Part shown: in pieces, positions 2,470 to 34,757 of the stretch | Layout of the letters: the number at the start of each line of letters is the position of its first letter | How positions within the stretch are numbered: position 1 is the first letter of the stretch | Source of the DNA: a virus | Lineage: Duplodnaviria; Heunggongvirae; Uroviricota; Caudoviricetes | Strand: one strand, 5' to 3' | Virus record (IMG/VR): IMGVR_UViG_3300013936_000289 | Coordinates: 280,064 to 344,063 of that record | Length of the DNA stretch: 64,000 nt | Translations under genes and position numbers: made by a program | The notes under the pieces: generated by a model | Told to the model about the DNA's origin: nothing | Seen by the model: the letters and a program-made list of their open reading frames with translations, nothing else | The model's database searches: none

Positions 2470-3243
2470 TTAAATATCTTTATTTTCAATATTTATTTGG
2501 CATTCCTGCATTAAATCATAATATTTATTATGTCCGTCCTTTAAAAATTTTACTATATTATTATCACACTCTATTGCTGGAAAATTATAACGAATCTGGT
2601 AGATTAATTTATCTTTTAAATAATTTAATATATTTAAACTTGTATATTTTCGTTTTAAATAATCATCAAGACAATAACCGAGATTACTGCCTATCCATGT
2701 AATAACATCATTTTTTGTATATAATTCTTTTCTTGCATATATAAGTCCCATGCATTGACCTATTTGAAATGCAAATAATTTCAATATATCTTCTCTTGAC
2801 ATATTATTGTTTAATTTATCAAAATCAATATATTCTAAATTAATACTTAATAATACGTCTAACCTCTTATACCAATTACTTCTTAATGCTAATTTTATTT
2901 CTTTTCTATATTGCGATCTAGAAAGATGTGATAACATTGCACGTATTGCTCTAATAAGTTTCAATGGTATATCTCTACCAACCTTTCTATTAATAAGTAA
3001 TTCTGTATTTTGTTCATGTAACTTATATGTATCTAATATCGCATTATTTAATTCATCAACTGTTCCTTTATAACAATTAGTTATAATACCGTTATTTATC
3101 GTTATTAAGTTTCTGTTTTCATTCTTATCAGCCGAACAAAACTTTTTACATTCTTGTAATGATGGTAATTCATCAACTATATATGCAATATCTACATCAG
3201 TTGAATCTTCTGAACCATATATATAATTTCCTATTATATTCAT
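2470..3243 (-). CDS. Pol-beta-superfamily nucleotidyltransferase-like protein
   Basis: N-terminal YIYGSEDSTDVDIAY matches the GS-x-D-x-D motif. Confidence 0.6.
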   Translation of the reverse strand: MNIIGNYIYGSEDSTDVDIAYIVDELPSLQECKKFCSADKNENRNLITINNGIITNCYKGTVDELNNAILDTYKLHEQNTELLINRKVGRDIPLKLIRAIRAMLSHLSRSQYRKEIKLALRSNWYKRLDVLLSINLEYIDFDKLNNNMSREDILKLFAFQIGQCMGLIYARKELYTKNDVITWIGSNLGYCLDDYLKRKYTSLNILNYLKDKLIYQIRYNFPAIECDNNIVKFLKDGHNKYYDLMQECQINIENKDI

Positions 3244-3274
3244 ATCTTTATTTCTTTATCAAAACTATCCATAA

Positions 3275-4267
3275 TTATTTATGAAATTTATTATAAATTA
3301 TTTTCTTTATATCCTATTTGAATTTTCTATAATTTATTTGTAACTCAAATATCATTGCCTAAAATTTATCTTTGTCATCCTATGAATATTCAGATAATCT
3401 TGGTCTATAATCAAAATGATATTTGTTTAACTTATATTTTATCAAATGATATTTATAGCATGAGTAATTATATATTTCCATAGGTCCATAATTATTAGAA
3501 ATAAAAATAGTTCTTAATGTGTTTATACACTATTTCATTTCGTTTAATAACGTTATATTATTTAATGAATCAATATCTTCATCTTCTGATTTAATATGTT
3601 CATATACTGCATTTAATCTTGCTCGTTCTTCAGACTTATTAAATATATAACATAATCTTAAACTTTTATCAAAATAATTTGGATTATCCCAGTTAAAAGG
3701 ATTTTTTTCATCATCAGGTAATTTATTTTTATTAGACTATAAAACATCTTTATCTTCTAATGCATACATTTCTCTAATATGTAAAAACTCATGTTTACAT
3801 GAATCACGTAATAACTATATATTATCCTATATCATATATGAATTTAAATATATAACAATTTCATTATTATTCTTATCTTCACTTTTTATATATGAATATG
3901 AAGTTGATTCTGTATCGTTTAATATATAAACATATATAGGATATTTTATATTTTCATTATCTAGTTTTTTACATAAAGAATCTTTTATATTAAAATTATA
4001 TCCTGTATATACTTTTATATCATTACTTATATCTATATTATCCTTATAAATATTTCCTATAACATCTATAACATCATCAAAAACATCACTTATATGATAT
4101 TCTTCATTTACTATATTATCAAAATCTACATCATTATTATATTGATATAATAATCGTCTTTCATAAGACCAATTAAAATTCTCTCTAAATTTTCTATAAT
4201 TGTTTTCATATAATTCTTTTTCGTTATGAAAATAATATTCAACTAATTGCTTTATATATTTGTTCAT
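3275..4267 (-). CDS. zincin-like (HExxH) protein, 330 aa (code 15)
   Basis: ORF 3827..4267 continues through TAG into ...SCKHEFLHIREMY...; ends at TAA 3275. Confidence 0.6.
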
Positions 4268-4359
4268 AAGTGAATAAAATAAATTTCAATATTTATATAA
4301 AAATTAAAGACATTATATATTATAAATATATAATGTCTTTAAATATGTAAAACAAAATG

Positions 4360-4445
4360 CGGAAAGGAGAGGTGTCGATCCCCATACATTTCACTGTACG
4401 ACTTGTTTTCAAGACAAGCTTGCGAGCCGTCGCAATTTCCTTTCC
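4360..4445 (-). tRNA. tRNA-Ser(TGA)
   Basis: GGAAAGG/CCTTTCC acceptor, CTTGT-CTTGAAA-ACAAG anticodon arm, long variable arm, G73; atypical T-loop ATCGACA. Confidence 0.85.
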
Positions 4446-4586
4446 AAATAAAAAATTAAGGTTTATACTCTGTGAGAACCTTATAACTCAGTACCAATAC
4501 GATGGTCTCCAAGACTTTCCACTAAAAATATTTAATGTTCTTGTAGTTACGATTCTATATAATTAAATATAGACTATTAAAATTTG

Positions 4587-4656
4587 TTCCTGTCTACGGA
4601 ATTAAACCGTAACCTTCACTTTTCAAGAGAAAATGCTTTCGTTACAACAAACAGGA
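4587..4656 (-). tRNA. degenerate tRNA-like gene, probable anticodon CTT (Lys)
   Basis: TCCTGTT/GACAGGA acceptor, TACGG-TTTAATT-CCGTA T arm, 6-bp anticodon stem with CTCTTGA loop, shortened D arm. Confidence 0.5.
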
Positions 4657-4778
4657 TGCAGTGTTTTATTGTACAATTATTATCACTGTCATTCATATTT
4701 CCTCATTTATAATATTACTTTATAGATACACAATCGCGAACAGTTATCCATATTCATAAAATAAATGCATCATACTAG

Positions 4779-4851
4779 TAGCGGGAGTGTGACTCGAACA
4801 CACGACCTCAGGGTTATGAGCCCTGCAAGCTACCAACTGCTCCATCCCGCA
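4779..4851 (-). tRNA. tRNA-fMet(CAT), copy 1
   Basis: CAGGG-CTCATAA-CCCTG with three G:C pairs, 1:72 mismatch. Confidence 0.92.
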
Positions 4852-4879
4852 ATATAAAAACATAAAAATAATAATGAAT

Positions 4880-5180
4880 TCATAGATGGATTCCTGACTA
4901 CCATCAAACCCTATTACATATTAAGCACATTATTCAGTCACGACAAGTTAGTTCATGACGCTAACTCCTAAATGTCGGAAGGATTGATTACCTTCAAAGG
5001 CTACAAGCATCATATACCATTCTACGATTTGACCTTTCTTACGTCACTCATGGTTGGCCAACCATGGCTATTTTAACCTTATGTTTCTTAATATTGATTA
5101 CTCTAAATCATATCTTTTCAGATATAACCTAAATGCCTTATCCACTGCTAACAGATTATTCAGCAATATAAAAACATTAT
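4880..5180 (-). ncRNA. candidate structured ncRNA between tRNA-Thr and tRNA-fMet
   Basis: No convincing ORF, locally raised GC, hairpins such as CATGGTTGG/CCAACCATG. Confidence 0.35.
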
Positions 5181-5192
5181 TAAGTTATGTTG

Positions 5193-5265
5193 AGCTGAAT
5201 GTCGGATTCGAACCAACGACCTACGCATTACAAGTGCGTCGCACTACCAACTGTGCTAATCCAGC
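5193..5265 (-). tRNA. tRNA-Thr(TGT)
   Basis: ACGCA-CTTGTAA-TGCGT anticodon arm, canonical D and T arms. Confidence 0.93.
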
Positions 5266-5346
5266 ATAAATTATTTCAACTTATTATTTATCTAATTTAT
5301 TTTTGAAATTGATAATAAAATAAGAAAATATTTTATATTATTATTG

Positions 5347-5427
5347 TACTCCTACTCGGACTCGAACCGAGACGTAATTAAACCTAGATCCTTAATCTAG
5401 TGGCTAGACCAATTCGCCTATAGGAGT
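5347..5427 (-). tRNA. tRNA-Leu(AAG)
   Basis: ACTCCTA/TAGGAGT acceptor, CTAGA-TTAAGGA-TCTAG anticodon arm, variable arm, A73. Confidence 0.88.
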
Positions 5428-5504
5428 ATTTAAAATTAATTTCATAAAGAAACTTTTTAATTTAATAACGTAAATTTAAAATCTTGTTTATTTTTAACTA
5501 TTTT

Positions 5505-6500
5505 TTATTTAAAAGTTTTTCTTCCTCTTATATAACCATTATTTATATATTCATCATATAATTCTGTTCTAATCATATGATTCTCTTTTTCATTATGAAC
5601 CCATACATAAGTATAATTTTTCAAATCTAATTTTGGATTATAACCATCATATAATTTAATAAAATCAGTACCATATGTATTTATTACATAATCTAAATAT
5701 GGTTTTATATCATCTTTATATAAAACTTTTACATCCGGATTCTAGTTTTCTTTTAATTTCCACTAATCTGTAGAATATCCTTTTATTTCTATTATCCCGT
5801 CATCTGTTATAAAATCAGGATAATATGAATGAACTTCATTATTCCAAATATAAGACCTTTTTTCTTTACAACGTTCTATATTTAAATTATGATCTTTATA
5901 ATAAACAAGAAATGCTAATTCCCATGAACTATCACAATGAATTCCTTTATACCATCCTTGTTTGCCTCTTCCAGAACCTTCTCGATAACCACCAGTATGT
6001 GCAGATAAATATTTGTGTTTACATTCTTTTGAACAATATGTTCTTCCTCTAATATTGCGTATATCAAACACAGAAAAATCTTTATTACAATATTTGCACT
6101 AATATATTTTTCTTGAACGTTCAGCAGCTATCTAACATTTAATAGAATTTTTTACACTAATAGATGTTTTCTTTTTTGATTCTTCTGTTCTTTTTGCTCT
6201 ATGTGAATTGCCATATGCAGTTGCACAATATCTATTACAAAATCTTCCAGAACCATAATAACCATCTATTACTTTACCACAATTCTCACAATATAAAACT
6301 TTACTTTCTTCAAATTGTTTCTATTGTAATAAATAATCATTCTTTATCTTATTATAATCTATATTACGTTTTCTAAATAATCGTAATAAAGTATTTCCAG
6401 ATTTATTATATTTCTTATCAACTGCTTTTAAAGAATAATTACAATTTCTATATTCCTATATTAATTCGTCATCTGATAAAAATTCTAAATTCTATTTCAT
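5505..6500 (-). CDS. free-standing PD-(D/E)XK (TnsA-like) putative homing endonuclease with Zn fingers, 331 aa (code 15)
   Basis: CENCGK..YGSGRFC Zn-finger; DSSWELAF...YYPDF...IIEIKG nuclease motif; joined across TAGs; starts 12 nt after tRNA-Glu. Confidence 0.75.
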
Positions 6501-6512
6501 ATTATTGATTAG

Positions 6513-6584
6513 TAGTGGGTAGGAGAGTCGAACTCCTGTTTAGAGAATGAAAATCTCTAGTACTAACCGCTATACGAACCCACC
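6513..6584 (-). tRNA. tRNA-Glu(TTC)
   Basis: AGAGA-TTTTCAT-TCTCT anticodon arm, canonical cloverleaf. Confidence 0.93.
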
Positions 6585-6684
6585 AGTTAATTTGCGTATC
6601 TTAATTATTTTCAATTCATAATTATTATATGTAATCTTTATAGTAAAGTCTATATATTTATCAAAAATATTTTCAAAATATTTG

Positions 6685-6788
6685 TGGGAACAACAGGATT
6701 CGAACACTGTGAAGCAAGATCATTTCAACCGATTTGCAAATGCACTCTACTTACCGTAGAGTTCTCATACCAACGAGAAGATATTCCC
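6685..6788 (-). ncRNA. 104-nt non-canonical tRNA-like RNA
   Basis: GGGAATA/TGTTCCC acceptor, D arm TTCTC-GTTGGTAT-GAGAA, T-loop TTCGAAT with bulged stem; no canonical 7-nt anticodon loop at the standard position. Confidence 0.55.
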
Positions 6789-6932
6789 AAATATTAAAAA
6801 ATTACCGTATATAAGAAGTTGCTTAGCCAACATCCATTATAATTTCCCTTATTGAAATATATATTAACCACGTGTATTAACATACTTCGTACAGTTACTA
6901 AAACCGCCTTTTTCTAAGAAGGCTCATGACGT

Positions 6933-7589
6933 TTATGGTAATTTATTTATATATTCTTTTAATTCTTTTGATTTATATGGTAAATCATATTTTTTACACC
7001 ATTTTTTAATGGCATTTCCTGTAATACCATATAATCTACCAATATTTTCAAATGTAATATATTTCTTAAATAATTGTATTAATTCTTCTTTTGTAGGAAT
7101 TGTATAATTTTTAATTGGTTCTATTTTTTCAACTAATTTTTTATAATCATTATTCCTATTTATAGAATCAAATTTAAATTTATTTAATAAAATATTAACA
7201 TTTTCTTCATCTTTTATAATTTCAGTTGGGCATTTTATTATATTAGCATGTATTTCTCTATGACAATTTGCGCATACTAAAATACATTTATCTAATTCTA
7301 ATTTAACATCATTCCATCCATGTGTATAACCTGCATATCCTATTCCAAACTCTTTTTTATTAGGATCTATATGGTGAAATTCTAATGCAGATATACATTT
7401 ATTATATCCACAACATTGACATTTATTTCCTTTATATGCAACTGATAATAATTTTAAATGTTCTCGACGTCGCTATACATATTCTGTCTAACATTTATTA
7501 CATACCCAATGTATTTTATTATTATATGTATATAAAGAAAATAATGTATTACCATGAATATGGCATATACGACATTCTTTTTCTCTCAT
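6933..7589 (-). CDS. HNH endonuclease with C-terminal HTH, 218 aa (code 15)
   Basis: CQCCGYNKCISALEFHHIDP...CILVCANCHREIH; two TAGs; starts 5 nt after interrupted tRNA-Asn. Confidence 0.85.
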
Positions 7590-7594
7590 ATTTG

Positions 7595-7809
7595 CGCTTC
7601 GAGTAGGACTCGAACCTACGACTTTCTGATTAGCTACATAAATTGGATTCGAACCAACTAAACTTTCAGCGATTTAGATTTATTACTATAATAGTTATAA
7701 ATCAATATTGCGTCCGCAAGTCTGATACCTAACAGCATTATGTAGTTTAATTTAATCAGGTTGTTTCCTGTATACAGTCAGACGTTCTAACCAACTGAAC
7801 TATCGAAGC
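7595..7809 (-). tRNA. tRNA-Asn(GTT) interrupted by a 141-nt insert (7633-7773) in the anticodon
   Basis: 5' exon GCTTCGATAGTTCAGTTGGTTAGAACGTCTGACTGT plus 3' exon TAATCAGAAAGTCGTAGGTTCGAGTCCTACTCGAAGCG gives a perfect 74-nt cloverleaf with the same anticodon arm as the intact Asn at 13125. Confidence 0.85.
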
Positions 7810-8144
7810 AAAATTTGAATAGTTTATCTACGGACACTATTCTTTTTATTCTAATATTCAGGCGTATACTTTACCGAGAAAACATATACTTCCTATATCA
7901 TGAAGTTTATTTTAATGGAACTACATATCATGATTAAAACCATATTCAACTCCTGAAACTAATTATCAATAGATTAAAATAATCTTTCAGTCTCTCTTAA
8001 ATATAAGGTTAAATTACTTATATTCATAATTATTTTTTAAATCTATTTATTTATAATTTAAATCAGCATATCATTACTAAAAGAAATAATTAAAACTTTT
8101 AATAATGGTCCGGACAATGCTATACTACTAACTCTCGTTATATA

Positions 8145-8441
8145 TTAAAAATGTAGATAAAATATAGATAATATTGAATAACATATTTTTCTGAATAATG
8201 TTTCATTATCTAAATCCACATCTTTTGTCTATTCCCTTTTTATATGCAAATCATAAAGAAGATTATGTGATCTCCATTCATTTATTAAACTATACATACT
8301 CCTTTTATGAATAACATAAGTTTTATCACATTTTTCACGTATACTATTAATAACACATTTCATGTTTTTAATAGATTTTATTTTATAACTATCAATTATT
8401 TTCACGTCTTCCTAACTGATAATTACTTCAGGATTAATCAT
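8145..8441 (-). CDS. hypothetical protein, 98 aa (code 15)
   Basis: Manual translation MINPEVIIS(Q)EDVKIID...EWRSHNLLYDLHIKRE(Q)TKDVDLD. Confidence 0.6.
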
Positions 8442-8486
8442 ATATAAAAATTAATTGTTTCATATATTTATCTTTAATCCATTATG

Positions 8487-8560
8487 TGATTCTGGTGAGG
8501 ATCAAACTCACGACCCGTGCTTTAGAAGAGCACTGCTCTGTTCAACTGAGCTACAGAACC
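8487..8560 (-). tRNA. tRNA-Arg(TCT)
   Basis: GTGCT-CTTCTAA-AGCAC; T-loop variant TTTGATC. Confidence 0.9.
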
Positions 8561-8756
8561 ATTCACCAAAATTATAAAAATCAGAAGTCATTTATTTTTA
8601 AGTATTTGAGTTTTCTTTTTCTAGTAAACATTATCATAATTATATATGTTTGCTGTATTGACTTCCATCATCATAAATAAACTTTCATAAACACTTATAT
8701 TTCTTACTAATTAAAGTCTCATCATAAGTCAAATACTTTAATTCATTTACAATTTG

Positions 8757-8830
8757 TACTACAGGAGGGACTTGAACCCCCGACCGCCAAGGTATAAGCT
8801 TGGAACTCTAACCGACTGAGTTACTGTAGT
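8757..8830 (-). tRNA. tRNA-Ile(TAT)
   Basis: CCAAG-CTTATAC-CTTGG anticodon arm, canonical cloverleaf, A73. Confidence 0.88.
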
Positions 8831-8922
8831 GTAATTTTTAAACTCTTATATTATATTCAATTTATAAGTAAATGTTTATATTTTTTAATAAATTAATTTT
8901 AGATATACTAATCAAGTTATAG

Positions 8923-8995
8923 TGTTCCGTACGAGACTCGAACTCGTTACCCCGATATTAAAAGTATCGTGCTCTGCCAGATGAGCTAACGGAAC
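8923..8995 (-). tRNA. tRNA-Lys(TTT)
   Basis: CGATA-CTTTTAA-TATCG. Confidence 0.93.
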
Positions 8996-9184
8996 AACTC
9001 TATATTTTAATTTACATAACTATTTTAATTACATTAAAAAGATACATCTTTTATTTTTATTTGTAATTAAAAAATATTTTATAAATTATTTTCTTTCATA
9101 TTTCAAAGAACTAAATTCATAATCTTATATGAATATAATATTTAAAAGTTTATATTATTAACAACTTTTTTATTAAATATTTGT

Positions 9185-9256
9185 TGGGTGGGTGAGACTT
9201 GAACTCACGACTTCATCCTTATCAGGGATGCGCTCTAACCATCTGAACTACCACCC
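9185..9256 (-). tRNA. tRNA-Ile(GAT)
   Basis: CATCC-CTGATAA-GGATG. Confidence 0.92.
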
Positions 9257-9262
9257 AAAATT

Positions 9263-9530
9263 AAACAAGTAGATTTACGAGACACAGACTTTTTCACCCT
9301 TTATATAAAGGAATACTCGCTATTAGGCACTTGCGCTGTTTTACGAAATTGTTGTGTGTCAACTTATGGCTTCTTACGAAATCTGCTGCTCTTCACATCT
9401 ATGAACTAATGTTCAAACCAATTCCTTTCAATAATTGACCTGTAACCCTTATCAGTTCTTCTGTCTATAAATTAGCTAGCATATAATTATAAACTTACTC
9501 ATTATTCTACTTGGAAGTCTATACTTGTTT
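9263..9530 (-). ncRNA. candidate ~270-nt structured ncRNA
   Basis: Closing helix AAACAAGTA/TACTTGTTT, internal long-range pairs AGATTT/AAATCT and GACACA/TGTGTC, no ORF. Confidence 0.5.
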
Positions 9531-9589
9531 ATATCATTATTAGATAATATACGACATTAAAACTGTAAAGTATATTTCTAATAATTATT

Positions 9590-10456
9590 TTATAATTTAT
9601 ATAAATCTGTTTCTTTATGTTCTAGTATTAATTTAACATTATATCCTAATTTTATATATTCATTAAATTTATCTTTCATATTCTAAATATCTAATGTATA
9701 ATTAGATTTTACTTCAACTAATAAATTTTTATTTGAAATATAAAAATCTGGTATTGCGCATCTATATTTCTATTTAATAGAATCATAATATTTTATTCTC
9801 TTACATTCAACATCATAATCAATTTGTTTTGAATCTAAATATAATGCATAATCTAATTCATATGTACTTCGTAAATATACTTTTTTATTATTCCATGTAA
9901 TATGATAGCAATCTTTACCTAATGTATGTGTGGGTCCTTTTAATTTACCATGTAAATATGATACTGTTGTTGATTCACTAAAATGTCGTATAGGAAAATT
10001 ATATGATTTAAATAGATGTAATAAAGTTTCAGAATTATTTATATATTTTTTACAATTATATTTAATATAAATATCTTTTGGTGATAATTGATTAATTACA
10101 TATTCAGTATATAATAAATCTTTAACTTTATTATATTCATCAACAAATTTTTTTGTATATAATGTATTAATATTTAATCCAAATGGTATTAATTTATTAA
10201 ACCATTTTGATGACTAATGTTTTGATATTTCAGGGTTTTCATTATTTAACTATAATGTACCGCAAAAATATTTTTTAATTTTTATATCATTTTTTATATT
10301 ATAATACCTTTTTAATGACTCTGATATTTTTTCTTTTGTTTCGTTAGATATTTTCCTATGTTTATTTGTATATGCACATCTACAACTTCCACAACAAAAT
10401 CGTCCAGAACCATAAATAGGTTTAATATAATATTTCCCACAATTTTCGCAATTCAT
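9590..10456 (-). CDS. free-standing PD-(D/E)XK (TnsA-like) putative homing endonuclease, 288 aa (code 15)
   Basis: MNCENCGK..YGSGRFC Zn finger; LRSTYELDYA...AIPDFY...LVEVKS; joined across TAGs; follows interrupted tRNA-Phe. Confidence 0.75.
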
Positions 10457-10508
10457 AATAAAATTAATTTTATTTATTCGAACTGTATATATGATTTTTC
10501 AGTTAAAG

Positions 10509-10669
10509 TGGACCCTTGTGGAATCGAACCACAACCCCTGGATTGTCTCTATAATTAGAGTCGAACTAATAATTTTATATCCATAAAATATAATATATAG
10601 AGATTAATTTTATACAGTTTATTCTGTTAATTCAGTCCAATGTACAGGCACCAGCCATACGCAAGGTCC
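10509..10669 (-). tRNA. tRNA-Phe(GAA) interrupted by an 86-nt insert (10545-10630) in the anticodon loop
   Basis: GGACCTT/AGGGTCC acceptor; TTGGA-CTGAA|AA-TCCAG after removing insert; TGTGG-TTCGATT-CCACA T arm. Confidence 0.82.
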
Positions 10670-10678
10670 ATTTAATAG

Positions 10679-10751
10679 TAGCGGGAGTGTGACTCGAACA
10701 CACGACCTTCGGGTTATGAGCCAGACAAGCTACCAACTGCTCCATCCCGCA
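10679..10751 (-). tRNA. tRNA-fMet(CAT), copy 2
   Basis: Identical to copy 1 except anticodon stem and variable region (TCTGG/CCCGA). Confidence 0.88.
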
Positions 10752-10791
10752 ATATAATATTTTTATTATTTTTAAATATTCACTAAAATCG

Positions 10792-10862
10792 TTGGACTAC
10801 CGGGATTCGGACCCAGTCTAGAAGAACCAAAATCTTCTGTACTACCATTATACTATAGTCCA
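10792..10862 (-). tRNA. tRNA-Gln(TTG)
   Basis: GAAGA-TTTTGGT-TCTTC; T-loop variant TCCGAAT. Confidence 0.9.
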
Positions 10863-10896
10863 ATGTTTCAATAAACATATCTAATAATATTCATAG

Positions 10897-11132
10897 CGGT
10901 TATAAATGGATTCGAACCATTAATCTCCCTCGACCCAGGGTATTCTATGAGTAAACGATAATTATTGTATTCTCTACTTACTCATAATATAAAAACTAAT
11001 AACGGTAAAAGAGCTTAAGAATAATACCATTTGATCCGCAAACATCTCATATTAGTTTTTATATTACTTCCAATAGATATTCATGTCAATTACCAGTTAT
11101 TAACTACTCCACCTATTTTGAACTATATAACC
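10897..11132 (-). ncRNA. 236-nt tRNA-like RNA with multi-helix insertion
   Basis: GGTTATA/TATAACC acceptor, AATGG-TTCGAAT-CCATT T arm, D-like arm; internal helices ATAAAAACTAATA/TATTAGTTTTTAT and ATGAGTAA/TTACTCAT. Confidence 0.6.
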
Positions 11133-11141
11133 AAATTTTTG

Positions 11142-11216
11142 CGGTGCGTACGGAACTCGAATCCGTGACCTCTACAGTGACAGTGTAGCATTCTGACCAA
11201 ACTGAACTAACGCACC
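11142..11216 (-). tRNA. tRNA-Asp(GTC)
   Basis: CTACA-CTGTCAC-TGTAG, G73. Confidence 0.93.
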
Positions 11217-11238
11217 ATATCTTAACTTACATAACTAA

Positions 11239-11655
11239 TTATCTTTCTGGATGATAATAATCTTTCCAATTATTAAATGTATTTTTAATAGATAAACTTT
11301 GTAAATAATCTATTGAATAGCATTTATTCGTATGTATCATTCTATGATGATTTGGACATACAATAATTAAATTAGAAATATCATCAGTTCCACCATTAGA
11401 TTTTTCTATTATATGATGAATATCACAAGTAGATTCATTCCACCCACATATTGCACATCCTATTTTTGAACGTTTCAATATTTTAGATATTGTTCTTTTA
11501 GAACAATCTAATATACTATTTAATTCATTTTCTTTAGAATGTTTACGTTTTTGTTTACATTCATCACATTTTATATGTCTATCTTTTCTAAAAGTCTTAG
11601 TAGAATAAAACTTTTTATTACAAGATTCACATATATATTCTTTTAATTCTGACAT
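11239..11655 (-). CDS. HNH endonuclease, 138 aa (true start MSELKEY)
   Basis: CAICGWNESTCDIHHII...NLIIVCPNHHRMIH; the longer ORF-track start would run through tRNA-Tyr. Confidence 0.85.
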   Translation of the reverse strand: MSELKEYICESCNKKFYSTKTFRKDRHIKCDECKQKRKHSKENELNSILDCSKRTISKILKRSKIGCAICGWNESTCDIHHIIEKSNGGTDDISNLIIVCPNHHRMIHTNKCYSIDYLQSLSIKNTFNNWKDYYHPER

Positions 11656-11660
11656 ATTTG

Positions 11661-11743
11661 TGGGTGAGGTAGGACTCGAACCTACGAAGTCAAATGACAG
11701 CTGATTTACAGTCAGCCCCCTTTGCCACTCGGGACACTCACCC
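11661..11743 (-). tRNA. tRNA-Tyr(GTA)
   Basis: GCTGA-CTGTAAA-TCAGC, long variable arm, A73. Confidence 0.93.
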
Positions 11744-11748
11744 AAAAT

Positions 11749-11855
11749 TAATGAAATATACAAAAGGAATTGAACCTTTTAATACTCTTATAGCTTACCG
11801 GCTTTACGGTATTTTAATAGCACGCCCTTGCCCTGTGGGATAATATATTTCATTA
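11749..11855 (-). ncRNA. tRNA-like RNA with extended acceptor helix
   Basis: TAATGAAATATA/TATATTTCATTA terminal helix, AAAGG-TTCAATT-CCTTT T arm, CCC/GGG D-like arm, TACCG/CGGTA hairpin. Confidence 0.45.
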
Positions 11856-12073
11856 AATTTTACCTGAAACATTCACCGCTGCCCGTTCACCTATAGGATT
11901 TAAAATAGGTTCTAACCAGAATGAAATTAACATACGCCTTCAAATATATTTTATATTTAGACTTAATAATATATTCTACATGTTTACTTTAATTCATTTA
12001 TTTAATAAGTAATTAAGTATATTGTCTAATAATATAGTTTAATCCTTATTACTGTAATGTTTCACACCTAGCG

Positions 12074-12147
12074 TGGAGATAATGGTACTCGAAACCATGA
12101 CCCTCTGCGTGCAAAGCAGATGCTCTAGCCAACTGAGCTATACCCCC
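12074..12147 (-). tRNA. tRNA-Ala(TGC)
   Basis: TCTGC-TTTGCAC-GCAGA, G3:U70. Confidence 0.93.
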
Positions 12148-12203
12148 AATTTATAGAGATTTAGATAATACCCTATAAAATTCTTTTGAGTTAAAAACAA
12201 TAT

Positions 12204-12417
12204 TTAGATATTTAACTTAATAACATATATAAATTTTATAATATATATGAAGTTAACCTTAAAAACTATATATTAACTATATAGAAAAATAATTATCTAA
12301 ATCTTATCTTTTTAAAAATATGAATTTATTTAATTTTTACATACATAATTTATAAATTAAATTCTTCTAACGACTCAATTCATAAATACTCAATATATAA
12401 AACATAAATATCTTCAT
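12204..12417 (-). repeat. dispersed ~213-bp repeat, copy 1 (copy 2 at 60711-60923, +)
   Basis: Reverse complement aligns through long shared blocks such as TTTAAAAAGATAAGATTTAGATAATTAT and ATATGTTATTAAGTTAAATATCTAA. Confidence 0.85.
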
Positions 12418-12486
12418 ATTTTATGATTCAATATTTATATTGAATAAACATATAAAAGTCTATTTAAATTATAAATATTTTTATTA

Positions 12487-12691
12487 GTTGTCTTGATGGA
12501 TTCGAACACACCTTTATCCTTACAATACATACTTCAATTTTCGCTTCACTAATCATCTTTCACTCCAGTTCCATTTTGCACACTGCACTCGCAGTTAATG
12601 CTCCTTTCCCCTTATCTATATTTCATTTTCATACCTCGTTACTTCTCTTTTCTTTAGGACCATAGTAATACCATGTCTATACGAAAGACAA
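12487..12691 (-). ncRNA. 205-nt tRNA-like RNA with purine-rich insertion
   Basis: TTGTCTT/AAGACAA acceptor, GTA/TAC D stem, bulged T arm GGTGTG-TTCGAAT-CCATC as in the 6685 element. Confidence 0.5.
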
Positions 12692-12701
12692 ACCCAAAAG
12701 G

Positions 12702-12774
12702 TAGATGGTAAGAGATTCGAACTCCTGACAGCTCGGATGTAAGCCGAGAACTCTAACCACTGAGTTAACCATCT
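12702..12774 (-). tRNA. tRNA-Val(TAC)
   Basis: CTCGG-CTTACAT-CCGAG. Confidence 0.93.
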
Positions 12775-13124
12775 AAATCTAGTATACTGCTTTCACAAGT
12801 GGTATACTATAATAAAAATTTAATTTAAATTAAAAATAAGATTAAATAACTAACAGGGTGGAGTTGCACTTCCCTTACTTCATAGTTGCAATACGCAGTG
12901 ATGAACCCTTCTTTTTAAGAAATAAAAGAAATAGCGCTGTTTTTATTTCTTAAATTGTTTAACCCTTACTTTAACGTAAGACTTCATTTACCGTTAAACT
13001 ACGTTATTATTTAATCAATCATCAAAAAACATATTCAGAAACATTATATATCTCCGCCTTGACGGTATCATCTGAATTTGAAAGGTACGAGCCTTCATAT
13101 ATAAAATGTTATGTTTTTAACTTG

Positions 13125-13195
13125 CGGGTACTGAGGGAATCGAACCCACGTCTTCTGATTAACAGTCAGATGCTTGACCTTCCAGCTAAATACCC
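13125..13195 (-). tRNA. tRNA-Asn(GTT), uninterrupted
   Basis: TCTGA-CTGTTAA-TCAGA, G73. Confidence 0.92.
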
Positions 13196-13849
13196 AAATA
13201 TAACTTTAAAGTCAGTTAACTACACATCCGACCGTTACAGTGACACTTCTTATTCTTATAAGATTTATGTATATAACCAAACATTAGCTTGAGTCGTTCA
13301 TTTGTTCTATTCAGCTCGTGGAGATATATCTTTTTGAAAGCAATAGCAATATTAAAAGGACTTTAATATTCTATATATATCTCCTGATGCACTTTGGACA
13401 AGCAGTCTAATATAAGAAATCTTATATAGAGCCTGATATTTTTCAATCATATTTTTCTTTGGCAGCATCATTATTATAAATTCATATAGTTATGTTTGTT
13501 TCCTCACATAAACAATAATGAAATTATTTATGAAGTTACTTTTAAATTTGAAGTTCAATATTATATCTGATTAACTTCTCAGTAACATTAAACATAACAT
13601 ATATTATATGAATAATTTCTATATTTGTCTATCAAAATTTCAAAGAACTTTATTTTTTAATTACAATTCAAAGATACATCTTTATTTTGAATTAAAAAAT
13701 ATTCTAAGAAAAATTTTCAAAAAATTATTTTCTTATTTTGTTATCAATATTTCAAAGAACAATTTTTGTTTGTTATTTTATTAACAATACAAAGATACAT
13801 AATATATTTCAAATAAAAAAATTTGTCTGATAAAAAATCAAAAATATTT

Positions 13850-14098
13850 TTATTTAATCTTTATTATAGTATCATTATCTATAGAACGTCTAATCCATCT
13901 CATAAGAATAAGTGCTCTATCATAATGTGGTAAGAATGCTGCTGTTTCACCTACATCATGTTTATCTGATAAATCTATTTCTATCTAATATATATGATTA
14001 TCATCTGATGTAATGTTATAAACAACAATACCACCTGAATTTACACAAACAATGTCTGCTGTACCCTTAACTAAAGATTTTAAATTAATCTTTTCCAT
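13850..14098 (-). CDS. hypothetical protein, 82 aa (code 15)
   Basis: MEKINLKSLVKGTADIVCVNSGG...HIY(Q)IEIDLSDKHDVGETA...LMRWIRRSID. Confidence 0.7.
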
Positions 14099-14123
14099 TT
14101 TTCTAATTTAATTTATTTTTTAG

Positions 14124-14198
14124 TTGGGGTGGTGGGAGTTGAACCCACTACCAGTATTCTTAATAAGAATACCACTCTGACCGTTGAGTTACACCCCA
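14124..14198 (-). tRNA. atypical tRNA with extended anticodon arm (6-bp stem, TTATTAA loop; apparent anticodon ATT)
   Basis: TGGGGTG/CACCCCA acceptor, canonical D and T arms, anticodon arm 2 nt longer than standard. Confidence 0.65.
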
Positions 14199-14390
14199 CT
14201 ATGGAGTGTTCCTAAATATAATACAACAATATATCATTAAACATATAGGAACATGATTTCTTATGTCAATCCTATATATAATAATGTATAATATAAGATC
14301 AACAATTTATAACTGTATTCGATGCTTATGTATATGTCGTATTAACTTTGTCATATTATTCTTATTTTATTTGTATAAATTTTTAATTTG

Positions 14391-14481
14391 CACACAGAGA
14401 AGGATTCGAACCCTCGAACAGTACATATATACCGTTATTGGTTTTGGAGACCAACTGCATCAACCACTCGCACATCTGTGT
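14391..14481 (-). tRNA. type-II (Ser-like body) tRNA with Trp anticodon CCA
   Basis: ACACAGA/TCTGTGT acceptor, G73, TTGGT-CTCCAAA-ACCAA, ~20-nt variable hairpin. Confidence 0.85.
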
Positions 14482-14797
14482 ATTTCTATAATAAATGAAA
14501 AAAATCTTGAAACTCTCTGTTTATTGCAGAATGTTTCAAGATTTAAAATATATTAATAGTTTTACTATTATTTCTTTATTTATAAACGTATTAACTAATC
14601 ACAATATCTCGTAACATATCTGCATAACAATCTTGTTCATACCAATTAAATGAATCGGCATAAATATCAACGTTATTTTTATATATGTTATTAAATTGCT
14701 TCATAGTTTTTTTGTTTTTAAAAATTATTTCTTTATTATATATATCTAAATTTTTTTCAAAAGTCTCTCATTTTTGAAACTTTTTTTCAAAAAAATA

Positions 14798-15715
14798 TTA
14801 ATTTTTTGTTAATGGAGAAAATAAAGTTAAAAATGTTATTGATTTTGGTGCATAAGTTTCCAATATAGCATCAGCAGAATCTGATATAGTTTTACCTGAT
14901 GTAACTGTATCATCTATAACCAATATCTTCTTATCATTAAGATATTTTCCATATGTAATTTCATCTTTATATATATCATTAATATACATAGATTGAATAA
15001 TTGCATTCCTTAATGGTTTACCTAAAAATTTATATGAAAATATTCCATCATTGCCATTTTTATTTTTTGGTAAATTCATATGCCGTATTGATCTTGATAT
15101 TAACTTATGTATTTTTTCTTCCTCTTCTTTATTTTTACAATGAGTATCAAACCAATCAGTATTTAAAAAACCTTCATATACGTCATTTGCATCAAGCTTC
15201 TGGAAAAAATCAGTATATGTATGTTCGCACGTAATAAGTTTTTTAACTCTATATAATACTTCTGTATTTAATTTATTTGAAGAAGGTATAGTAATAATTA
15301 CATCAAACTTTTCTTTTAATTCTTTTGTAACTGCAACGAATCTACGTAATAAAGCAAATATATCATATGATGGATTTGAAAATTTCCATCCATGCAAACC
15401 TTTTAATGCATAAATTAATGGATTACCATCATATCTATCTTCTGTTTCTTTACGTTTAAATATCGAAATTACCTTATAACCTTCTACTTCATTATATATA
15501 GGTTTCGGGTTCCAAGGATCATTTGTATCTACATATTCTTGATGATTTGGATTGAATGAAACAATATGTGTTTCATCATCAAACTCTATTCCTTCATCCA
15601 TATATGAATTTAATGATTCCAAAATATCATTAATTTTGGAATCATTAAAATTATATTTTTTTAATGTATCTTTAATAGATATTGATATATCTTTTTTTAA
15701 TTTATCTATATTCAT
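14798..15715 (-). CDS. type I phosphoribosyltransferase-domain protein
   Basis: KKILVIDDTVTSGKTI PRPP-binding motif. Confidence 0.75.
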   Translation of the reverse strand: MNIDKLKKDISISIKDTLKKYNFNDSKINDILESLNSYMDEGIEFDDETHIVSFNPNHQEYVDTNDPWNPKPIYNEVEGYKVISIFKRKETEDRYDGNPLIYALKGLHGWKFSNPSYDIFALLRRFVAVTKELKEKFDVIITIPSSNKLNTEVLYRVKKLITCEHTYTDFFQKLDANDVYEGFLNTDWFDTHCKNKEEEEKIHKLISRSIRHMNLPKNKNGNDGIFSYKFLGKPLRNAIIQSMYINDIYKDEITYGKYLNDKKILVIDDTVTSGKTISDSADAILETYAPKSITFLTLFSPLTKN

Positions 15716-16281
15716 TACTCATCAATATTAAGTTTCTCTACTACAATGCCACATTCTTCCAAAAGTTTAATACCTGCATCACTCTTATAATTATTAAGAT
15801 AAACAACACGAGATACCTCTGATTGTACCAAAAGTTTAGCACAATGAATACAAGGAGAAAGTGTTACATATACGGTTCCACCTTTTGCTGATGAATTATA
15901 CTTAGCAAGTTTCGTTACTGCATTGCTTTCAGCATGCAAGGTAATATCCTTTGTAATAAGTCGAAAGCCTGGCATCATACCTTTATTGATATTACGATAT
16001 TGTACAAGAATTTCCTCTTGCTTCTTCTTATCATGATATGATTCAGGAGTTTCAAGTGTTGTATGTTCACCTGTATTGATATTATAGATTTCCTCACAGA
16101 TATTAGGCATTCCAATAGGCATACCATTAAATCCTTGGGAAATTACCTGATCATCCTTAGATACGATAATACAACCTACTTGTTTCTTAATTGCATATGA
16201 AAGCTTACTCATAGCGAGAGCCATGTTCATATATGCAATATCAAATTCATGCTGTCTTTCTATTGATGATTTCTGTGTCAT
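15715..16281 (-). CDS. dCMP deaminase
   Basis: KQVGCIIV..GFNG, HAESNA and TLSPCIHCAK Zn motifs. Confidence 0.9.
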   Translation of the reverse strand: MTQKSSIERQHEFDIAYMNMALAMSKLSYAIKKQVGCIIVSKDDQVISQGFNGMPIGMPNICEEIYNINTGEHTTLETPESYHDKKKQEEILVQYRNINKGMMPGFRLITKDITLHAESNAVTKLAKYNSSAKGGTVYVTLSPCIHCAKLLVQSEVSRVVYLNNYKSDAGIKLLEECGIVVEKLNIDE

Positions 16282-34214: not shown

Positions 34215-34757
34215 TTAAAATAATTTAGGTGTATTATCTTCATGTACGATAACAGATGAATCTTTAATAAATGTATCTTCTTTATGTGTTTTACTCCATA
34301 TTGTATCTATTAACTCTATATTACCTCCAATATTTACATTTTCTAATACGCTAATATCAGAAATAGGATTATGTGAAGCAATAAAGCAATTATTGATCCT
34401 CTTCGCAATTCCTGATATATCAGAAATATTACAATGATCACATACCAATGAACCTAAAATTTCTTTTGGACATCCATCTAATGATGTTAATTTAGGATTA
34501 TTAAATATATATACATTTCCATTTACAATATCAGGAAAATTCTTTAACGATTTCAATGAACCATGTGAATCATCCGATATATTACCATACCAATTAATAG
34601 AACCATTTATCTGATGAATCTTTACAGGAAACTCATCATATTGCTTATCAAATATTATAATAGAACCATCTACTATAATATTATTATTTTCATCTCTATA
34701 TACATGAACATACTTATCATTAAGCATATTCATTAATGTTAAAACTTCATTATCCAT
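34215..34757 (-). CDS. LRR-like ('LTSLDGCP') repeat protein
   Basis: SLKSLKNFPDIVNG / KLTSLDGCPKEILG repeats. Confidence 0.7.
   Translation of the reverse strand: MDNEVLTLMNMLNDKYVHVYRDENNNIIVDGSIIIFDKQYDEFPVKIHQINGSINWYGNISDDSHGSLKSLKNFPDIVNGNVYIFNNPKLTSLDGCPKEILGSLVCDHCNISDISGIAKRINNCFIASHNPISDISVLENVNIGGNIELIDTIWSKTHKEDTFIKDSSVIVHEDNTPKLF

Follow-up and report, generated by a model that had tools for sequence, protein, structure and literature searches.

A predicted tRNA-like fold shared by the anticodon-loop introns of Lak megaphages, seen from an interrupted tRNA-Phe gene

Known introns of tRNA genes and the Lak locus

Bacteria and their viruses have been regarded as having only self-splicing introns in their tRNA genes. 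The group I introns of cyanobacterial tRNA-Leu(UAA) and tRNA-fMet lie in the anticodon loop, are mobile and are often linked to a homing endonuclease gene. Our study concerns an intron that likewise belongs to the bacterial world and has these habits, in a 64,000-nucleotide (nt) stretch of viral DNA from IMG/VR record IMGVR_UViG_3300013936_000289 (the window), where a tRNA-Phe(GAA) gene at 10669-10509 on the minus strand has its anticodon loop, CTGAA...AA, split by an insert of 86 nt at 10630-10545. Unlike group I introns, this short insert has no P1-P9 or G-binding features, and its conserved part is a tRNA-like domain. The window comes from a B-lineage Prevotella Lak megaphage (over 5 kb it shares 99.5 % identity with Lak-B8, B7 and B4), its genes decode TAG as glutamine, and a tRNA array occupies 4.5-14.5 kb of its minus strand, on which all window features given below lie.

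Introns in Lak tRNAs have been described before as 'enigmatic' and highly conserved, with no Rfam match and no mechanism proposed (Devoto et al. 2019, Nat Microbiol, PMC6784885). Table S6 of that report lists a Phe(GAA) intron for Lak-A1/A2 and a single intron, in 'Tyr', for the B genomes, and its authors remarked that the Thr(TGT) intron 'may encode a tRNA' and that it is in reality joined one base away from the predicted 37/38. Their account gives neither a common architecture nor the C74 rule set out below, and the 'Tyr(GTA)' host is actually tRNA-Asn(GTT). We found no follow-up on Lak tRNA introns in the literature. The published Lak-A1/A2 Phe intron is a 79-nt homologue at the same site of the same gene; compared with it, the window intron is a diverged allele with a different D-like hairpin, two compensatory pairs in the T stem and a linked nuclease gene. 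As the B genomes were listed with one intron only, the B-lineage Phe intron appears to be an unreported allele of the published family, being an anticodon-loop insert of a Lak phage that is homologous to the published introns and shares their architecture.

The kind of intron is thus already known, and what our study adds is proven junctions, a common architecture, covariation, the C74 rule and a mobile cassette. These introns have been an unexplained exception since 2019, and their anatomy now gives a concrete, falsifiable mechanism. We put at about an even chance the best reading of the evidence, which is that this is a mobile Lak tRNA-derived intron removed by proteins, and not by self-splicing.

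The tRNA-Phe intron and the family to which it belongs

The 5' exon (10631-10669, up to tRNA nt 36) holds the acceptor strand GGACCTT, a D arm with an 11-nt loop, the anticodon stem TTGGA and loop nt 32-36, CTGAA. Reading on, the intron (10545-10630) opens with a 5' module (10614-10630) made of the spacer TTA (10630-10628) and the hairpin ACAG-AATAAA-CTGT (10627-10614), followed by the A/T linker ATAAAATTAAT (10603-10613), the last T of which is able to pair with A73 of the inner fold. Next come the inner acceptor 5' strand CTCTATA (10596-10602), which pairs with 10553-10547, the hairpin ATTTTAT-GGAT-ATAAAAT (10572-10589), the inner T arm ATTAG-TTCGACT-CTAAT (10554-10570), and the acceptor 3' strand TATAGAG with A73 and C74 (10545-10553), directly after which lies the 3' junction. 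The 3' exon (10509-10544, nt 37-73) reads AA, TCCAG, T arm TGTGG-TTCGATT-CCACA, acceptor AGGGTCC and A73, with the outer C74 of tRNA-Phe at 10508. An earlier note on this DNA, made from its letters alone, had listed these elements of the insert, and on the minus strand all of them are present where it placed them. The gene is called by neither ARAGORN nor the Rfam tRNA model, and standard tRNA finders miss or mis-name interrupted genes of this sort.

The position of the junction is settled by comparison. Two Lak contigs in IMG/VR (L007, L008) have exons identical to those of Lak-A2 and no insert, reading ...CTGAA|AATCC..., and as neither boundary can slide, the Phe junction is 36/37. In Lak-A1, A2 and C1 the same tRNA-Phe gene is interrupted by the homologous 79-nt insert, and the window sequence is ~84 % identical to theirs over 181 nt spanning the whole interrupted gene; the Lak-A2 intron matches the published A1 sequence (Devoto et al. 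2019, Table S6). Their D-like hairpin has a different stem and a GGTT loop. The predicted spliced join of the window allele is ...TTGGACTGAA + AATCCAGGGG..., which carries allele-specific single-nucleotide polymorphisms (SNPs) in its exons, unlike the intron-less strains.

A paralogous 141-nt intron at 7633-7773 has the same architecture and interrupts a tRNA gene at 7595-7809, for which Lak-A2/C1 have an intron-less orthologue. This gene, listed with the one at L002 8480-8644 (minus strand), is a tRNA-Asn(GTT), as the earlier note had held, and was named Tyr(GTA) by tRNAscan in Devoto Table S6 and Ser(GCT) by ARAGORN. Intron-less alleles fix the junctions in three families, namely Phe (36/37), Thr(TGT) (36/37, Lak-C1 against Lak-A2) and Asn (35/36), so that the difference in position between Phe and Asn that the note had proposed is proven.

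These positions bear on the idea of an archaeal/eukaryal-type intron, cut at a bulge-helix-bulge by the splicing endonuclease (EndA/Sen) and sealed by RtcB or Trl1. Introns of that class resemble the Lak intron in being short, in lying in the anticodon loop, and in depending on proteins and a ligase, as we propose for Lak, and it was the eukaryote mode of tRNAscan-SE that revealed the Lak introns to Devoto et al. However, the Lak junctions are 36/37 and 35/36, and not 37/38; on inspection of the sequence, the inner acceptor helix takes up intron nt -2 to -9, so that neither a 3-4-3 bulge-helix-bulge nor its central 4-bp helix is possible. A tRNA_int_endo domain was found in 0/3 complete Lak genomes, against matches in all 4 archaeal controls, in a search that covered the phage and not the host Prevotella genome. 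The sites in Lak appear to be defined instead by the intron's own tRNA-like fold, and we give the bulge-helix-bulge explanation almost no credence.

To see how widely the module occurs, the Lak-A2 genome (541 kb) was assembled whole from pieces and scanned structurally. The module was found in exactly four anticodon loops, those of tRNA-Gly(TCC), tRNA-Asn(GTT) paralogue 2, tRNA-Phe and tRNA-Thr, with one chance hit at an ordinary tRNA-Ala. With further variants from Lak contigs in IMG/VR, the family alignment comprised nine distinct introns in four families, which need no gaps to be aligned across the linker/acceptor junction and the 3' end, and which share 22 invariant columns. All have one layout: WUA comes first, then a hairpin of 4-5 bp whose hexaloop is A-rich, then an A/U linker of 10-12 nt with a core that is conserved (in all four families, as invariant columns), and finally a tRNA-like domain whose last base is C. 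By sequence, the Phe, Thr, Asn and Gly introns are paralogues of one family. The two introns of the window can therefore no longer be counted as two independent instances, as the earlier note had done, since Phe and Asn share linker and acceptor sequence.

In all four families the tRNA-like domain consists of a 12-13-bp acceptor/T stack, a GG-containing D-like loop, a T arm with a TTCGAnY loop, and N73-C74. The middle of the domain varies (56-113 nt, with highly variable sequence). The anticodon arm is absent in the Phe and Gly introns, tetraloop-capped in the Thr intron (an 8-9-bp stem with GAGA) and in the Asn intron of Lak-A2, and replaced by a larger variable insert in the Asn introns of the window and of contig L068. 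In Phe, all that lies between acceptor and T arm is the 7-bp hairpin with its 4-nt GGAT loop. The description of this mimic as 'armless' is thus right as to the tRNA-like fold but not as to the arms, since the GGAT hairpin makes more sense as an analogue of the D arm, whose GG is free to form the elbow, and it is the anticodon arm that is lacking. A genuine nested tRNA gene is ruled out by the lack of a 7-nt anticodon loop on a 5-bp stem and of any match to the Rfam tRNA model; judged by their sequences, none of these domains is able to decode.

A domain that has retained all the features required by RNase P, by 3' processing and by CCA addition, and none for decoding, raises the question of whether the nested RNA is itself the product, a decoy or regulator freed by RNase P and a 3' endonuclease and then CCA-tailed, with the outer tRNA mainly its carrier; this could coexist with splicing. 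mascRNA from MALAT1 and the plant mitochondrial t-elements are precedents that count for such a product. Together with mitochondrial tRNA punctuation, they are non-decoding tRNA mimics that recruit RNase P/Z for precise ends, and we propose that the Lak 3' splice site is made in like manner. However, those mimics free their flanking RNAs without rejoining them and none lies inside another tRNA, whereas the Lak flanks are tRNA halves that need ligation. The length and sequence of the domain's centre are too variable for a product of its own to seem favoured, the copies occur only inside anticodon loops and never free-standing, and the 5' hairpin, at its fixed 3 nt from the exon, would be left without a role. 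We regard a released RNA as the main product as very unlikely.

That the intron is structured is carried by comparison and not by folding energy. The energy of the Phe insert, which is AT-rich, does not go beyond chance (z = -1.28; 24 of 200 shuffles fold as well), a result that weighs against our preferred reading. Single-sequence folding nevertheless recovers the 5' hairpin and the acceptor helix in 8/8 sequences, and the T arm in all but the Phe and Asn introns of Lak-A2. Across the nine introns the acceptor and T helices covary with a score of 0.625 against 0.233 for shuffles, none of 500 shuffles scoring as high, and all slid registers collapse. Every cell of the inner T stem is paired (100 %) and 4/5 of its pairs change on both sides; the window and Lak-A Phe introns differ in this stem by two compensatory pairs. 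The inner acceptor has 3 pairs with double changes, its unpaired cells coming only from two Phe rows in which the 5' strand is one column off, and in a third Asn variant the eighth acceptor pair goes from A-T to G-C. The stems of the 5' hairpin, which is predicted in every member, also covary (ACAG/CTGT, CAATC/GATTG, CAGG/CCTG, CAAG/CTTG). Taken together, the comparative evidence makes a convincing case for structure beyond chance. As a general signal of the genome the hairpin can be dismissed, with only 5 hits in Lak-A2, 3 of which are introns.

Both junctions keep a fixed distance from parts of the insert. From the inner T-loop to the 3' junction there are 14 nt in 9/9 introns, although these are composed in different ways: 5+7+AC in Phe, 5+8+C in Asn and Gly, and 6+7+C in Thr. 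The Phe intron has a 7-bp acceptor followed by A73-C74, the Asn and Gly introns 8 bp and C, and in the Thr intron a 6-bp T stem is combined with a 7-bp acceptor and C; by canonical tRNA numbering the last position of every intron is 74, and the base there is always C. The claim of the earlier note that both window inserts end at N73-C74 of the inner fold therefore holds and extends to Thr and Gly. On the 5' side, 3 nt separate the junction from the hairpin that follows it in the Phe, Thr and Asn introns, and 2-3 nt do so in the Gly intron. As both junctions are fixed relative to the insert in 35/36 and 36/37 hosts alike, it is the structure of the insert, and not the host tRNA, that both sites track; the note had proposed this for the 3' site, and the anatomy supports it for both.

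The C at position 74 has a parallel in ordinary tRNA genes. C74 is encoded and C75 almost never is, in 18/18 genes of the window (4586-14481), 28/30 of Lak-A2 (L017-L044) and 39/40 of Segatella (Prevotella) copri (L217-L246), of which 40 tRNA genes were sampled to represent the host genus. After C74, ordinary genes usually have A/T and then A, and at the junctions of the introns the sequence is C|AA in Phe, Thr and Gly, and C|TA in Asn. From an enzyme's viewpoint, and as far as sequence tells, the intron's 3' end with the 3' exon resembles a tRNA with its usual trailer. This hints that tRNA 3' maturation in the phage and host lineage ends at C74 rather than N73; in the literature nothing was found on C74-terminated Bacteroidota tRNA genes.

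A proposed route of splicing

Every enzymatic step of the route that follows is one that we infer from this anatomy. The intron would have entered the genome as one block, with a replacement 3' exon and a PD-(D/E)XK-like nuclease gene, by homing-type gene conversion. In the transcript, the nested domain (acceptor, GG-loop D analogue, T arm, N73, C74 and no anticodon loop) would make the 3' splice site look like the 3' end of any tRNA, and the host's tRNA 3'-end endonuclease, of the RNase Z type, would cut right after the inner C74 and leave a 5'-phosphate on A37. The conserved hairpin 3 nt past the 5' splice site would position a second endonuclease, cutting after A36, for which host RNase E/G or RNase Y, or a phage nuclease, are candidates. 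The nick in the anticodon loop would then be sealed by an RNA ligase, either a phage enzyme of the Rnl family or host RtcB after end healing.

What the phage itself encodes fits part of this scheme. Lak genomes have 4-6 RNA-ligase matches (PF09414) and an enzyme of the CCA-adding type. Three complete Lak genomes gave no match to RtcB, EndA, the RNase Z-type metallo-beta-lactamase, the RNase E/G families or the class A RNase P RNA model, and no match to Rnl1, whose controls gave no match either. The control genome of Bacteroides thetaiotaomicron matched the RtcB, RNase E/G and RNase P RNA families and the metallo-beta-lactamase family that includes RNase Z. Since the Lak genomes lack those nucleases, the cuts would have to be made by host enzymes or by phage proteins of other kinds. 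The features of a substrate mimic of RNase P and RNase Z, namely an acceptor/T stack, a canonical T-loop, a GG elbow partner and a discriminator, are found in all four intron families.

A new small self-cleaving or self-splicing RNA, with the three-helix junction of outer anticodon stem, 5' hairpin and inner acceptor as its catalytic core and a ligase or the RNA itself joining the exons, would account for several of the same observations. The linker and the A-rich hexaloop show strong conservation but nothing evident to pair with, the intron determines its two junctions by itself, and host ligases of the RtcB type, the family matched in the B. thetaiotaomicron control, could seal cyclic-phosphate ends. 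Yet the window intron matches no Rfam ribozyme or intron model even at E <= 10, the group I model finds matches elsewhere in Lak-B8 and not here, the conserved parts are exactly those recognized by tRNA-processing proteins, and the Phe intron, of 79-86 nt, is much shorter than the self-splicing introns that are known. A catalytic RNA is in our view quite unlikely.

A group I intron in particular was rejected: RF00028 has no match at E <= 10 in 3000-16000, its matches in Lak-B8 lie only near 165-166 kb, and 86 nt compares with ~200 nt or more for that class; the 86-nt insert matched no Rfam family at E <= 10. Several other ideas about the junctions were tried and set aside. RNase P acting at the 5' splice site was rejected because the Asn and Gly introns offer no helix that starts at intron nt +1, although one can be drawn in Phe and Thr. 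For the conserved linker, no pairing partner in the body of the intron or in the exons is consistent across families, the strands of the three-way junction are at odds with a hammerhead-like core, and the conserved ACA that might attract MazF-type cutting is 2-3 nt away from the junction.

Several further observations weigh against removal by proteins. No RNA run was found for 9500-11500, and the literature has no RNA evidence of splicing; the one run found was of DNA type, gave a contig that matches the intron allele exactly and shows no joints, and has no bearing on splicing. RNase Z canonically cuts after N73, and not after C74, and that Bacteroidota mature their tRNA 3' ends by a cut after C74 is something we infer from gene sequences. 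RNase P would be expected at the 5' end of the inner acceptor, 27 nt inside the intron, and would leave a flap, so that the 5' step needs another enzyme; the RN|WU context around the 5' site fits 3/4 families only. Every genome has one intact tRNA-Asn and the host supplies tRNA-Phe, which would make a dead interrupted copy tolerable. The link to nuclease genes is also loose: Lak-A/C keep the Phe intron without an adjacent nuclease gene, and nucleases of both kinds described below also stand behind uninterrupted tRNA genes.

If the preferred reading is extended to its mechanism, the Lak tRNA introns might form a third mechanistic class of tRNA intron, borne by a virus of bacteria and neither self-splicing nor dependent on a bulge-helix-bulge, in which a decoy tRNA top half has end-maturation enzymes make the cuts (at 3' after the decoy's C74, at 5' measured from the hairpin) and a phage RNA-repair ligase rejoins the exons. 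We advance this tentatively, as a possibility that we hold to be somewhat doubtful. Should it be true, the same logic would explain how the intron could hop between anticodon loops, among Phe, Thr, Gly and two Asn paralogues. Splicing by tRNA end-processing enzymes and a ligase would add a new route to those known for RNA splicing, would plausibly model the way in which splicing of tRNAs by proteins could arise from tRNA processing, and would give a phage a novel means of controlling or protecting the tRNAs it encodes.

Mobility, nuclease genes and the surrounding tRNA array

At the DNA level the intron belongs to a cassette of 1,046 bp (9585-10630), which comprises intron, 3' exon, a 52-nt spacer and a nuclease gene; in Lak-B8 its place is taken by 40 bp, which make up the 3' part of an uninterrupted tRNA-Phe. 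By blastn, 8001-9584 is 100 % identical to Lak-B8 and 10631-11500 is 99.8 % identical, with no match between them. The 5' exon differs from that of Lak-B8 by one base, T28 for C28, whereas the T stem of the 3' exon is TGTGG/CCACA against GGTTG/CAACC; as the 3' exon is unlike the 3' half of Lak-B8, it came in with the cassette. The 92 nt upstream of the cassette contain two linked SNPs, one of which re-establishes base pairing with the incoming 3' exon. T28, which was co-converted, is complementary to A42 of the new exon, and the exons retain their cloverleaf pairing. From their sequence, the two SNPs look like a co-conversion tract.

The nuclease gene of the cassette (9590-10456) is free-standing and encodes 288 amino acids with 4 TAG codons read as Gln; a Cys4 zinc finger lies at the N terminus and a PD-(D/E)XK-like motif at the C terminus. 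Its product weakly matches the NUMOD3, Tox-REase-7, phrog_945, DUF7487 and T7 endonuclease I models, and C3, C6, C21, C25, D237, E248 and K250 are invariant in 34 homologues. There are >360 relatives, and those checked sit inside the tRNA arrays of other huge phages, among them homologues of 53-62 % identity at L247, L248 and L249 (2823-4137), where the arrays are dense. A 76 %-identical gene lies behind another interrupted tRNA-Phe (L015), and one homologue is found ~100 nt behind an intact tRNA-Phe on a 465-kb contig with 23 tRNAs in 7 kb. Directly behind the interrupted tRNA-Asn is an HNH endonuclease gene (6933-7589; phrog_2255, E = 2.5e-31), which in Lak-A2/C1 stands behind an intron-less tRNA-Asn. 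In the light of these two intact neighbours, we rejected as a general rule the idea that the intron protects its gene from the neighbouring endonuclease.

The window has four free-standing endonuclease-like genes that each lie directly behind a tRNA gene (5505-6500, 6933-7589, 9590-10456 and 11239-11763). Two are HNH genes and two share the Cys4 finger and PD-(D/E)XK-like motif; TAG must be read as Gln in 3/4 of them, 11239-11763 having none.

The closest known counterparts of this arrangement are T4 SegB and the 'collaborative homing' of cyanophage psbA, which likewise have a nuclease gene by a tRNA gene or intron, a clean presence/absence cassette and a short co-conversion tract. The window has an adjoining nuclease gene and presence/absence polymorphism with co-converted flanks, as a SegB-like homing cassette would. 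It differs from SegB in that its nuclease is PD-(D/E)XK/DUF7487-like, and not GIY-YIG, and in that the intron persists without the nuclease in Lak-A/C. An Asn-type intron sits in tRNA-Asn paralogue 1 in Lak-B and the window but in paralogue 2 in Lak-A2/C1, each genome keeping one intact tRNA-Asn. As judged from sequence, this DNA-level pattern of clean cassette, polymorphism, co-conversion and paralogue switch is the signature of homing-type mobility.

Mobility of this kind is also what would be expected of an unspliced selfish insertion, a tRNA-derived element spread by homing endonucleases or recombination that has killed a dispensable tRNA while the host supplies tRNA-Phe. The presence or absence of the intron differs among close relatives, the intron travels with a nuclease gene, one tRNA-Asn per genome is intact while the other paralogue is interrupted, and no splicing machinery is identifiable in the phage. 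Against this, the whole Lak-A2 genome has no uninterrupted tRNA-Phe, tRNA-Thr(TGT) or tRNA-Gly(TCC), so that the interrupted copies are its only ones; the exons remain perfect cloverleaves; and the RNA helices covary while the 14-nt ruler is kept through compensating changes, which selection at the DNA level alone would not need. Identical introns also persist across human, pig and baboon cohorts. That interrupted copies are the sole ones in Lak-A2, together with the conserved exons and intron helices, suggests that the split genes are in use. A selfish insertion that is never spliced is, on balance, unlikely; if it were the case, Lak phages would carry a tRNA-derived mobile element that targets anticodon loops, which would also be unusual.

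The reach of the family was searched for in three ways. A Lak-derived pattern gave 52 loci in IMG/VR, of which only 3, all on Lak contigs, passed the structural filter; the exact 5'-junction pattern recovered from metagenomes only copies of the Lak-A type, and not the window allele; and a search with a neighbouring gene gave one distant relative only, without tRNAs.

Other tRNA-like genes of these phages have larger inserts, of 232 nt (L008, 1038-1360, minus strand) and 327 nt (Lak-A2, 488954-489377, plus strand, with a TTA anticodon), which are probably group I introns. Lak-A2 also has pairs of oversized tRNA-like sequences at 34242-34476 (plus strand) and 396968-397197 (minus strand) with intact T arms and acceptor stems and aberrant middle regions; these are outside the tRNA intron family with WUA and a hexaloop hairpin. 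Within the array of the window, two weak matches to the manA RNA motif (4875-5164, between tRNA-Met and tRNA-Thr) are sub-threshold, at 19-20 bits against a gathering score of 55. The tRNA at 14123-14198 is given anticodon ATT ('Asn') by ARAGORN, and at the same place Lak-B8 has AAT ('Ile') and Lak-A2 TAT (Ile); judged from these sequences, this is an anticodon polymorphism within an otherwise conserved tRNA. A 91-nt tRNA-Trp(CCA) with a long variable arm lies at 14391-14481 and is conserved in Lak-A2, C1 and B8.

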